Source: an archaeon
GTDB lineage: Archaea; B1Sed10-29; WALL01
Length of the DNA stretch: 64,000 nucleotides
Assembly (NCBI GenBank): GCA_042584585.1
Contig: JBHOSQ010000001.1
Span: 1-64,000 of the forward strand
Reading direction: 5' to 3'
Shown: positions 9,693 to 50,548 of the stretch, piece by piece
Layout: every line of letters begins with the position of its first letter
How positions within the stretch are numbered: position 1 is the first letter of the stretch
The notes under the pieces: generated by a model
The model's input: only the letters and a program-made list of their open reading frames with translations
Database searches by the model: none
Told to the model about the DNA's origin: nothing
Position numbers and translations under genes: made by a program

Positions 9693-10532
9693 TCATATTT
9701 CCTGGTGTGGTTGGTATATCACGGCACCACATGACTTGCAGTGTAACGCGTCTTTGTCGTGGTATCGCAGGCTGCATTTCTTGCAGGTGGTATCACTCTT
9801 CTCTCTGGCGAGCGCCCATTCCTTGATTATTTGGCCCGCCTGCCAGGGGATAAGCACGATGCCAGAGATAATCATGAGGACCGTCACTGCCCTGCCCCAT
9901 AGCCCTGAGGGAGTGATGTCTCCGAAGCCGACAGTGGCGAGCGTGACGACGATGTAGTAAAAAGCGTCCCCGAAGTTATTTACAGTTGCATTTATCTCGT
10001 GTTCAGCATAATAGAAGAGCGCCGCACCCACGAAAAAAATCGTTAGTATCGTCACGATGAGCCGGCCGAGTATCAAGAGATGCTTGCTGATTGTCCCGAA
10101 AAAGAAATCCCGTGTCTCCATGAACCGAATGAAACGGAATATCCTAAAGACTCTGAACACGCGGAATATCTTGATGATTTGCATGAACGCGGCTGTGTGC
10201 GGCAGGAACAGCACTATGATTGGGATTATCGATAGCAGATCGATGATTGCGTATACTCCAAAGACATGCTTGATGCGGTTTCTCGCGCCGTAGAGTCTTG
10301 CGATATATTCGACAACGAATAATGCGATGATTGTGATCTCAAGGGGATACAAAAGCTGGATTACGGCAGTGGGCAGTTGGTAGGTCTCTGCCACGAGAAC
10401 CCCACATATCACCAAGTTTAGGAATAATATGAACATGTCGAGCCACTTGCCCAATGAGGTCTTGGAGTCTATCAAATAGAAGCGTATCGCCTCGCGGAAA
10501 GTTTTCTTCTTGGGCATCATGTGCATAGACAC
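9693..10532 (-). CDS. Voltage-gated potassium channel (6TM) with C-terminal Zn ribbon
   Basis: S4-like RVFRVFRIFRFIR, filter TVGFGD, CKKC...CKSC. Start uncertain (10532/10526/10520). Confidence 0.9.
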   Translation of the reverse strand: MSMHMMPKKKTFREAIRFYLIDSKTSLGKWLDMFILFLNLVICGVLVAETYQLPTAVIQLLYPLEITIIALFVVEYIARLYGARNRIKHVFGVYAIIDLLSIIPIIVLFLPHTAAFMQIIKIFRVFRVFRIFRFIRFMETRDFFFGTISKHLLILGRLIVTILTIFFVGAALFYYAEHEINATVNNFGDAFYYIVVTLATVGFGDITPSGLWGRAVTVLMIISGIVLIPWQAGQIIKEWALAREKSDTTCKKCSLRYHDKDALHCKSCGAVIYQPHQEI

Positions 10533-10642
10533 CGAACTAACATAAAAAGATGACTATGTCGATTAAAAGAGAAATCATGGCAAACTATACGTACACTCCT
10601 GAAAAGCCAAAGTCTTAATAAGCCACCAACGAATAATCTAAA

Positions 10643-10716
10643 GGGAGCAATGAAATGCCCTATGAGTATTGAAGCCCTTCGGGACTGATGATATCAGACG
10701 GGCGGGTTGAGCTCCC
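10643..10716 (+). ncRNA. Box C/D guide sRNA (predicted targets 16S C1402 and pre-tRNA-Met C34)
   Basis: Terminal stem GGGAGC/GCTCCC; C-like AUGAAA; D' UUGA; C(UUCG)G spacer hairpin; C' CUGAUGA; D UUGA. Guide GACGGGCGG is complementary to 16S CCGCCCGUC. TATA-like TTAATA at 10615. Confidence 0.88.
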
Positions 10717-10720
10717 ACTC

Positions 10721-11062
10721 CTAACACGTTACGTTAAGCGCGTTTTTGTTGAAGAGCAGCTGGTGCTCTCCCTTCTCGAACGAGCCCCAGCACGTGATTA
10801 TTTGGTTTCTGTTTGCGATTAAGTAGTTGTTGCCGGAGTGGCATGTGACGTTTTCTCCGGCGACGGTGATGTTTCCAATGAATATCCTTTGGCGCTCGAG
10901 GCTGTGGATGGAGACGACCAGGCTGGAGTTTGTGCAGACCGCCTTGTAAGTGGCTTCGACATAGTCGACGTCAGTCTGTGAAGAGAGGGACATGAACAGG
11001 GCTGTGGCCCCGCCCGCCAAAAGGACGATGACTGCAATGGTAAAACCCATGTTGGACGCCAC
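10721..11062 (-). CDS. Small exported/pilin-like membrane protein
   Basis: N-terminal hydrophobic helix followed by a beta-rich Cys-containing domain; GTG start after GAGG. Confidence 0.6.
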   Translation of the reverse strand: MASNMGFTIAVIVLLAGGATALFMSLSSQTDVDYVEATYKAVCTNSSLVVSIHSLERQRIFIGNITVAGENVTCHSGNNYLIANRNQIITCWGSFEKGEHQLLFNKNALNVTC

Positions 11063-47783: not shown

Positions 47784-48575
47784 ATGGACATCCGTCAACT
47801 ACGCAGAAAAGCCCTGGTCAAGGCCAAGCAAAAGGTCAGGGAAAAAAAGGCGGGGAGAGACTACGCAGTCATACAGGCAGTCGAAGCCATTGACGAACTG
47901 GACGACATTGCCAACATCATGACCGAGCGAGTCAGGAACTGGTACGCGTTCCACTACCCCGAGCTCTCGAAGCTCGTGCGGAGCGTCGACACTTACCTCG
48001 AAATAATCACTGTGCTGAAGGGGCGGAAGGACATGCGCGTCGCGGCACTCACCAAGTACTTGCCTGAGGCACAAGCCAAAAAAGTTGAGCTGATTGCAGA
48101 GCAGACAATGGGTGCCGACCTCAGCGACACCGACCTCGAGAGCATAGCCAAGTTTGCGTCGCTCGCGGCACACGCGCACAAAGAACGCGAAGAATTGGCG
48201 CAATACGTCGACGACACCACCGAAGACATCTGCCCCAACATGAAGTCACTCGTCGGGGGATTATTGTCAGCAAGGCTGATTGCCAAGGCCGGCTCGTTGG
48301 AGCGGCTCGCGGAAATGCCGGCGTCGACCGTGCAAGTCCTCGGCGCGGAAAAAGCGTTGTTCGCACACATCAAGAAAGGCGTGAAGCCCCCGAAGCACGG
48401 CCTGATTTTCGCTTACCCGGCTATTCACCAGGCGCCCAAGAACAGGAAAGGCAAGATTTCCCGCGTGGTCGCGGGCAAACTGGCCATCGCGGCGCGAATG
48501 GACTTTTTCAAGCACGGCCTGGACAAGACCCTTGCCGTAGAGCTCGAGAAAAAGATTGCGGGCGCGCTTAAATGA
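47784..48575 (+). CDS. nop5: Nop5 (Nop56/58 homolog), N-terminally truncated
   Basis: WYAFHYPEL, PASTVQVLGAEKALF, PKHGLIF, GKISR. Confidence 0.93.
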   Translation: MDIRQLRRKALVKAKQKVREKKAGRDYAVIQAVEAIDELDDIANIMTERVRNWYAFHYPELSKLVRSVDTYLEIITVLKGRKDMRVAALTKYLPEAQAKKVELIAEQTMGADLSDTDLESIAKFASLAAHAHKEREELAQYVDDTTEDICPNMKSLVGGLLSARLIAKAGSLERLAEMPASTVQVLGAEKALFAHIKKGVKPPKHGLIFAYPAIHQAPKNRKGKISRVVAGKLAIAARMDFFKHGLDKTLAVELEKKIAGALK

Positions 48576-49216
48576 ACGAAGCGTTCCACAACGTGTTCCG
48601 CGACGGAAAGCAATTGTATACACTGTCGTTTGACCCCGGGCAGCGAGTCTACGGCGAACGATTACTGAAGCACAACTCTGGCGAGCTGCGGCAGTGGGAC
48701 CCGAACCGGTCCAAGCTGGCGGCCGCGATTCTGAAGGGATTGAAAAAGTTTCCGTTCGAGGCGGGCACCGGTGTGTTGTACCTCGGCGCTGCGCAGGGAA
48801 CCACTCCGTCGCACGTGAGCGACGTGGTAAACAAGGGAGTTGTTGTTTGCGTCGAAATCTCGCAGAAGGCGTTCGAGAAATTACTTCCTTTGTGCGAACG
48901 GCGGGAGAACATGGTTCCCGTGCTGGCGGACGCGAACCAGCCGGGAGAGTACGCGGATTATTTGGACGGCGTGTCCGTTGTTTACCAGGACGTCGCGCAG
49001 CCGAACCAGGCAGCCATTTTTGTGAAGAACATGGCAAAAATCAAGGGGTACGGGATTCTGTGCATCAAGGCGCGGAGCGTGAACGTCGCGGAGCTTCCGA
49101 AGAACGTGTTCAAACGCGAAATCAAAGTATTGGAAGACGCGGGGCTGGACGTGCTGGAAGTTATTCCGTTGGAGCCGTTCGAAAAAGACCATGTGCTAGT
49201 GGTCTGCAAGAATTGA
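48572..49216 (+). CDS. flpA: Fibrillarin 2'-O-methyltransferase
   Basis: WDPNRSKLAAAI, LYLGAAQGTTPSHVSD, QDVAQP. Confidence 0.96.
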   Translation: MNEAFHNVFRDGKQLYTLSFDPGQRVYGERLLKHNSGELRQWDPNRSKLAAAILKGLKKFPFEAGTGVLYLGAAQGTTPSHVSDVVNKGVVVCVEISQKAFEKLLPLCERRENMVPVLADANQPGEYADYLDGVSVVYQDVAQPNQAAIFVKNMAKIKGYGILCIKARSVNVAELPKNVFKREIKVLEDAGLDVLEVIPLEPFEKDHVLVVCKN

Positions 49217-50434: not shown

Positions 50435-50548
50435 TGGGCGTGCCGAGATTTGAACTCGGGACCTCCGGTTGTCTCCGGCTCGCGGCCGAATGTCTGGAAC
50501 GCTGCCATATAAGACCGGCGCTCTGAAACCAGGCTAAGCTACACGCCC
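50435..50548 (-). tRNA. tRNA-Ile(UAU) with 37-nt intron at 37/38 (50471-50507)
   Basis: GGGCGTG...CCGGT CT TAT A [intron] A ACCGG...CCGAG TTCAAAT CTCGG CACGCCC A; relaxed bulge-helix-bulge. Confidence 0.9.

Follow-up and report, generated by a model that had tools for sequence, protein, structure and literature searches.

The question raised by positions 10643–10716 of the window, the 64,000-nt stretch of DNA analyzed here, is whether one small RNA of a DPANN archaeon could direct 2'-O-methylation of both the wobble base C34 of elongator tRNA-Met and the decoding-site base C1402 of 16S rRNA. An earlier note on this DNA had described the element as a dual-target box C/D sRNA with co-varied boxes, and all coordinates and strings that it gave for the element are correct. 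Considering the host genome together with related archaeal genomes, we regard a dual-guide sRNA for pre-tRNA-Met C34 and 16S C1402 as the best explanation of the locus as a whole, with a probability of about 80%. The genome under study is denoted G000, and the codes G001 onwards denote compared genomes; positions refer to the window unless a contig is named.

Anatomy of the sRNA and its genomic setting

As read from its sequence, the element has all the parts expected of an archaeal box C/D sRNA, in the 5' to 3' layout GGGAGC-A-AUGAAAU-GCCCUAUGAGUA-UUGA-AGCCCUUCGGGACU-G-AUGAUAU-CAGACGGGCGGG-UUGA-GCUCCC (Table 1). It sits in a 188-nt gap between two minus-strand open reading frames (ORFs). The N terminus of the 113-residue product encoded on its 3' side is a hydrophobic stretch (MASNMGFTIAVIVLLAGGATALF...) that resembles a signal or pilin-type leader. 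A TATA-like box precedes the terminal stem, and A/T boxes of sequence TTTAATA and TTTAAAC lie at equal distance upstream of homologues; the sRNA would be transcribed from a promoter of its own within the gap.

Table 1. Features of the sRNA locus and the Nop5 and fibrillarin genes, in window positions
Feature	Position	Strand	Remarks
ORF, membrane protein with channel-like sequence	9693-10532	-	
TATA-like box TTAATAA, putative archaeal promoter	10615-10621	+	about 25 nt 5' of the stem
Box C/D sRNA	10643-10716	+	74 nt
Terminal stem, 5' half, GGGAGC	10643-10648	+	pairs with 10711-10716, 6 bp
Box C, AUGAAAU	10650-10656	+	off consensus at positions 5-7; UGA kept for sheared G.A pairs
D' guide, GCCCUAUGAGUA	10657-10668	+	12 nt; N+5 is G10664
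Box D', UUGA	10669-10672	+	
Internal hairpin, AGCCC-UUCG-GGACU	10673-10686	+	canonical stem of the C'/D' K-turn
Box C', AUGAUAU (preferred register)	10688-10694	+	makes the D spacer 12 nt
D guide, CAGACGGGCGGG	10695-10706	+	12 nt; N+5 is G10702
Box D, UUGA	10707-10710	+	
Terminal stem, 3' half, GCUCCC	10711-10716	+	
ORF, 113 aa	10721-11062	-	adjoins the 3' side of the sRNA
Nop5 gene	47889-48557	+	PF01798, 217.6 bits
Fibrillarin (methyltransferase) gene	48581-49210	+	PF01269, 249.3 bits

In K-turns of this type, the UGA of box C or C' lies opposite the GA of box D or D', a scheme to which the box covariation described below lends independent support. All four boxes of the sRNA depart from the consensus (C AUGAAAU, D UUGA, C' AUGAUAU, D' UUGA); both K-turn cores, AUGAAAU/UUGA and AUGAUAU/UUGA, retain the UGA and the GA, and in both the 6:1 position is an A-U pair, formed in the terminal motif by the A at box C position 6 and the U at box D position 1. 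Boxes C and D would fold into a terminal K-turn, which the GGGAGC/GCUCCC stem closes, and boxes D' and C' into an internal K-turn closed by the UUCG hairpin, the counterparts of which are a perfect GCCC-UUCG-GGGC in G002 and GC-UCCG-GC in G001. The C-D' and C'-D spacers are each exactly 12 nt. A canonical-looking UGAUGA at 10686-91 is less likely to be box C', since it gives a 15-nt D spacer and breaks the C'6:D'1 pattern. The minimum free energy fold (-26.1 kcal/mol, z -2.24) contains the terminal stem; the pairing between the two guides that it also predicts was disregarded as an artefact of G/C-rich guides.

The G000 assembly spans 1.02 Mb in 32 contigs (55% G+C, 84% complete) and encodes L7Ae, Nop5 and fibrillarin. 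The genes for Nop5 and fibrillarin are adjacent and lie inside the window, where the earlier note had placed them, and L7Ae-family genes lie on other contigs. We infer that the three proteins would assemble on both K-turn motifs, non-consensus boxes included. A search with TIGR00096 for an RsmI homologue gave no match in the 84% of the genome that is represented. Within the window, Rfam at gathering score reports two tRNAs only and does not match the sRNA. The anatomy, together with the conservation described below, makes 10643–10716 almost certainly a real box C/D guide RNA.

ARAGORN, run with introns allowed, reports 45 tRNA genes in G000. A tRNA with the isoleucine anticodon UAU and a 37-nt intron lies at window positions 50435-50548 (-), ~1.2 kb downstream of the fibrillarin gene; it is seen by Rfam and by ARAGORN with introns and missed by default ARAGORN. 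This tRNA bears on the discrimination between AUA and AUG codons in the organism. A loose regular-expression scan of G000 for further C/D sRNAs returned the present sRNA and two doubtful matches; intron-borne modules escaped the scan, so it carries little information on the total number of sRNAs. The 82-nt intron of tRNA-Arg(CCU) (G000:C4:12013-12170, -) resembles a complete box C/D module, ordered as GCGAUGA, 13 nt, CUGA, a GCCACUUCGGUGGC hairpin, AAUGAGG, a guide and CCGA. The 59-nt intron of tRNA-Trp (G000:C4:11768-11901, -) contains CUGA-GGCCUUCGGGCC-AAUGA, the hairpin-type C'/D' core also present in the guide known from tRNA-Trp introns of Euryarchaeota.

Complementarity of the D' guide to pre-tRNA-Met

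ARAGORN with introns finds a single tRNA-Met(CAU) gene in G000 (G000:C8:4075-4184), interrupted by a 33-nt intron at 37/38. It reads ...GACUCAUA/GGGAAUU..., the slash marking the start of the intron, and we take this lone CAU tRNA to be the elongator, as it has a G1-C72 end and resembles the tRNA-Met of other archaea. The D' guide forms 10 contiguous Watson-Crick pairs with ACUCAUA/GGG of this pre-tRNA, from A31 to A37 and on through the intron GGG, and G10664, the fifth base upstream of box D', faces C34. The earlier note had made the second target hinge on such a tRNA-CAU context and had expected an intron beginning GGGC; the only tRNA-Met(CAU) gene does carry ACUCAUA followed by GGG, and N+5 does fall on C34, while the fourth intron base is A rather than C and the duplex measures 10 bp instead of 12.

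When the D' guide was shuffled and compared with the 48 stable RNAs of G000 (8346 nt, from this genome alone), 55 of 3000 shuffles reached at least 10 bp covering N+5; the strength of the tRNA match within a single genome is moderate. The D' guide would pair with the anticodon loop and the first three intron bases of the unspliced elongator pre-tRNA-Met and so lead to 2'-O-methylation of C34, and we judge that the sRNA very probably guides Cm34 of pre-tRNA-Met. Action before splicing, which the earlier note had proposed, is the natural reading and is supported: only 7 pairs (A31-A37) would be left to the spliced tRNA, and compensatory changes between guide and intron in relatives, described below, back it. 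A fit of the D guide to the tRNA-Met intron was also considered and discarded; by eye, none of the introns of G000, G006, G009, G442 and G446 contains the complement.

Complementarity of the D guide to 16S rRNA

The G000 16S rRNA gene (G000:C6, Rfam 1464 bits) reads ...CACACCGCCCGUCAAACC..., and GACGGGCGG at 10697-10705 forms 9 contiguous Watson-Crick pairs with its CCGCCCGUC, which bears out the earlier reading that position 10702 faces C1402. G10702 is the fifth nucleotide upstream of box D. The numbering was anchored by the faced C lying five nucleotides before the C-A step C1407/A1408 named in the available part of PMC5389701.

Shuffled D guides reached at least 9 bp in 309 of 3000 cases against the same 48 stable RNAs (8346 nt), and, taken alone, the match to 16S rRNA is weak and not significant. 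The single-genome evidence is hence modest, above all for the 16S site, and the significance of both matches derives from conservation and covariation. The D guide would pair with 16S rRNA nucleotides 1399-1407 and place C1402 for 2'-O-methylation; with the comparative evidence, it is probable that the sRNA guides Cm1402 of 16S rRNA.

Conservation and compensatory change within the order

A covariance model (R1) built from three homologues found by BLAST matches G000 and nine others among the 13 genomes of the order, with E values of 1e-9 to 1e-20 for the homologues. No match was obtained in G007, G008 and G012 (96, 66 and 61% complete), and elsewhere in the class R1 retrieved nothing but sRNAs of G016 and G026 that are unrelated and have guides of the tRNA-Leu type. 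Fourteen sRNAs were parsed, 13 from the order and one from a Thermoplasmata metagenome-assembled genome (MAG; G041), and the architecture C(7)+12+D'(4)+linker+C'(7)+12+D(4) fits all 14.

The parsed sRNAs fall into groups by their two arms. Guides for tRNA-Met C34 and 16S C1402 are combined in G000, G001, G002, G004, G009, G006b and G041; G003a, G010b and G011 combine the Met guide with a guide for 23S rRNA; and G005, G003b and G010a carry a tRNA-Leu(CAA) C34 guide beside the 16S guide. The 23S-type D guide, CAAGAGGGUCA(R), is complementary to CUGACCCUCUU in 23S rRNA (loci L042 in G003, L045 in G011 and L049 in G010), and its N+5 presumably corresponds approximately to E. coli C1920 in helix 69. 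Cm1920 of Nanoarchaeum equitans is reported as sRNA-guided in the available part of PMC5389701. The Leu-type D' guide, of the AGAUCUUGAGU type (L044 in G005, L048 in G003, L046 in G010), fits C34 of tRNA-Leu(CAA), pairing over 10 bp with the tRNA of G005 (L061) and over 8 bp with an additional G.U in the case of G003 (L059); the intron of the G003 tRNA-Leu(CAA) lies elsewhere in the anticodon arm. On this parsing, arms have been exchanged between sRNAs, and in G003 and G010 two RNAs would do the two jobs of the G000 RNA. The 16S guide with N+5 on C1402 occurs in 9 of the 13 genomes of the order, the sRNAs with tRNA-Leu arms included, if the 16S site is assumed to be universal. In G006b and G041, this guide is mismatched (A.C) at C1400.

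Genome G006 encodes two Met-guide sRNAs (L040, L047), one of which carries the 16S guide and has consensus boxes. Its companion, G006a, lacks a terminal stem and has a poor box C, and its D guide (UAGAUUGGUAGG) has diverged and shows no evident fit to 16S rRNA; this copy looks like a duplicate that is decaying or being retargeted.

Both the guide/intron duplex and the boxes show compensatory change. A31-A37 and three intron bases pair perfectly with the guide in all eight genomes of the order in which both sRNA and tRNA-Met gene were found: a guide CCC meets an intron GGG in six of them, and a guide CCU meets an intron AGG in G010 and G011. In another class, tRNA G31 is matched by a guide C, where the lineage of G000 has A31 and U. 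The tRNA-Met of G004 (L036) has an additional intron in the D-arm region besides that at 37/38, and the tRNA-Met of G006 (L035) apparently contains one or more long T-arm insertions besides its 37/38 intron.

The co-variation of boxes that the earlier note had claimed is borne out. The C6:D1 pair is Watson-Crick in 13 of the 14 sRNAs, G-C in eleven and A-U in G000 and G001, and is U.U in the decayed G006a only; C5:D2 takes the states U.U, A-U, G-C and A.G. With the G000 box C' read as AUGAUAU, C'6:D'1 is Watson-Crick in 14 of 14 (G-C, A-U, U-A). The AUGAAAU/UUGA boxes of G000 stand, by this comparison, at the far end of a gradual series whose starting point is the consensus boxes of sister families. 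Among 13 homologues, all six pairs of the terminal stem change on both sides, and 91.4% of cells are paired. Alignment A3, which was fitted to the model and so favors pairing, has 85.4% of stem and box cells paired vs 55.1% in shuffles and 33-47% in slid controls, and its covariation score is 0.72 vs 0.215 in shuffles; none of 500 shuffles reached either observed value.

Distribution of the dual guide across archaea

One genome per species was scanned with a pattern, which returned 29 matches, 6 in archaeal and 23 in bacterial records. The archaeal records are five Iainarchaeum/DPANN MAGs and one Thermoplasmata MAG; the bacterial matches were taken as chance, with three inspected and none of these sRNA-like. 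In the phylum to which G000 belongs, only two families, both within its own order, carry the dual form: 5 of 31 genomes match the strict pattern, and G002, with box D CGGA, adds to these five. The Thermoplasmata sRNA (G041) is compact, has consensus boxes and both guides, and the tRNA-Met intron of the same genome starts with GGGA. It is the sole match among 401 sampled Thermoplasmata genomes to a strict pattern that demanded ...UAUGAGU and GAYGGGC, which variants would escape.

An Rfam RF01126 search of five genomes of the same domain uncovered dual-guide sRNAs in G032 and G031. In the G032 sRNA, the D' guide is the Met guide, and the D guide, AUGAUGGGCGAU, forms 9 pairs, one of them G.U, with 16S 1400-1408 and has N+5 on C1402; the G031 sRNA has the same two guides with the order of the arms swapped. 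A looser pattern matched each of 81 sampled genomes from the class of G032 exactly once (L116-L127) and the reversed control in none; the swapped pattern matched 26 of 38 genomes from the class of G031 (L132-L135), with 0 control matches. The 16S guide in these two classes is AUGAUGGGCGAN, which forms the D' guide at four inspected loci of the G031 class and at the G031 locus itself. These patterns place the two predicted guides in one RNA in no fewer than three archaeal classes besides that of G000. The earlier proposal that one RNA covers both modifications stands as a matter of guide complementarity but describes no peculiarity of this genome, and the linkage is widespread rather than a feature of genome reduction here.

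Relationship to known guide RNAs

By guide and target, the G000 RNA is a lineage and box variant of the tRNA-Met Cm34 guide kind (sR-tMet/sR49). The haloarchaeal sR-tMet is said, by Joardar and colleagues in 2011, to have unusual box motifs. Guidance of Cm34 in intron-containing tRNA-Met by a stand-alone sRNA that pairs with intron bases is described in the available part of PMC2584109, which names Pyrococcus sR49 and points to 18 tRNA-Met guide candidates (Additional file 5), and the haloarchaeal sR-tMet appears in a table from the accessible part of PMC4033218. The haloarchaeal RNA is, like that of G000, a stand-alone ('exonic') box C/D sRNA of ~75 nt, the guide of which pairs with anticodon loop and intron such that C34 is methylated before splicing. 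It differs in that it belongs to Halobacteria and G000 to DPANN, and in that the second arm of the G000 RNA fits 16S C1402. On window positions 10600-10760, Rfam RF02163 (sR-tMet) gave no match at E<=10.

The Pyrococcus guide (sR49 in PMC2584109, available in part; 'sR41' in RF01126) has the guide core GCCCUAUGAG in common with the G000 RNA, in each case with a D-type box behind it, and has the same predicted target, C34 of intron-containing tRNA-Met. RF01126 has the Met guide before box D and an A/U-rich, poorly conserved D' consensus, whereas the Met guide of G000 is the D' guide. The RF01126 score on the G000 RNA is 16.8 bits, vs a gathering score of 54, and so below membership; the alignment covers model positions 23-53 only, setting C', D guide and D of the model against C, D' guide and D' of G000. 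The sRNAs in the classes of G032 and G031 and that of G041 are compact, with both guides and 12-nt spacers as in G000; they differ in that their boxes follow the consensus (RUGAUGA/CUGA) and that the linker is mostly a short K-loop. The 16S guide in those other classes is GAUGGGCG, with a G.U at 1405, vs GACGGGCG in G000.

Cm1402 is made in bacteria by RsmI, which modifies the same nucleotide in the same way but as a stand-alone, protein-only enzyme. The eukaryotic guides of the site include snR70 and SNORD43. Target nucleotide and chemistry are also shared with SNORD97/SCARNA97, which acts on tRNA-Met C34 (PMC6601510), and with the U43-type snoRNA for 18S Cm1645 of Arabidopsis, the equivalent of E. 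coli Cm1402 (PMC11542601); the eukaryotic guides for the two sites are, however, separate RNAs, and the tRNA is targeted without intron pairing. The latter study also aligns an archaeal Cm1369 with Cm1402 and describes snoRNA guidance of the site in plants. For archaea, the available part of PMC5389701 reports Cm1402 in N. equitans 16S rRNA with no sRNA candidate and a possible Cm1402 guide, sR11, in Ignicoccus hospitalis; by these descriptions, to which the comparison is confined, 16S Cm1402 is sRNA-guided or suspected to be so, as is predicted for G000. Helix-44 predictions in PMC4644070 are sparse and name no C1402 guide. The full texts searched yielded no description of a tRNA-Met C34 and 16S C1402 linkage, which supplementary candidate lists could hold.

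Discussion

Two of the alternatives to a dual-guide sRNA concern which arm acts, and on what. Were only the D' arm to methylate, the 16S fit of the D arm would be vestigial or would serve in holding or chaperoning 16S rRNA. This would agree with the ease with which shuffled guides reach a 9-bp 16S match, with the replacement of the D arm in G003a, G010b, G011 and G006a and with the mismatch two nucleotides from the target in G041 and G006b; tRNA-targeting sRNAs of Pyrobaculum do have a target-less second guide (review PMC7994747), and H. volcanii 16S rRNA is listed without Cm1402 in Table 4 of PMC2584109, as far as that source is available. We nevertheless consider a purely tRNA-directed function distinctly unlikely, as the 16S guide, with N+5 always on C1402, is kept in most genomes of the order, even beside tRNA-Leu arms, and throughout one and in much of the other of two further classes; Cm1402 does exist in an archaeon (PMC5389701, available part), and no RsmI was found in the 84% complete G000. 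That the D' arm acts on the spliced tRNA, or on another CAU tRNA such as the initiator or tRNA-Ile2, appears very improbable. Seven pairs would survive splicing, and the incomplete assembly may lack further CAU tRNAs; yet the three intron bases pair in every genome of the order that could be compared and co-change with the guide, 7 pairs fall short of the 9 consecutive pairs used as a prediction criterion in PMC4644070, and initiator tRNAs of the relatives read GGGCUCAUAACCC, which leaves only ~6 matches.

A gene copy in decay, or a stretch that resembles the boxes by chance, could likewise present four off-consensus boxes and go unmatched by Rfam at gathering score, and one G006 paralogue does look decayed. 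Against such a reading stand the E values of the homologues, the spacers of exactly 12 nt, the compensation in stem, boxes and guide/intron pairing, and the promoter-like box at the right distance upstream, which together reduce its likelihood almost to nothing.

The linkage of the two guides could be ancient and selected, retained with the arms in one order or the other in at least four archaeal classes on account of a joint action of both methyl groups at the ribosomal P site in AUG decoding. We hold this to be rather unlikely. If true, a single ribonucleoprotein would make the maturation of the 30S decoding center and of elongator tRNA-Met a coupled process, the separate eukaryotic guides (SNORD97-type and U43-type) could descend from the split of such an RNA, and the 'missing' Nanoarchaeum Cm1402 guide may hide in a tRNA-Met-associated sRNA.

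Taken together, these comparisons supply a clear methylation guide, validated by comparison, for a ~1-Mb genome of the DPANN (Iainarchaeum-like) archaea, a group with hardly any annotated RNAs of this type. The homologues form a natural series of compensatory K-turn variants, with C6:D1 passing from G-C to A-U and C5:D2 from U.U to A-U or G-C, which could inform how L7Ae recognizes its sites. The dual-guide sRNA offers a candidate guide for archaeal Cm1402, and the travel of the tRNA-Met C34 and 16S C1402 guides across classes in one sRNA may matter more than the case of G000.
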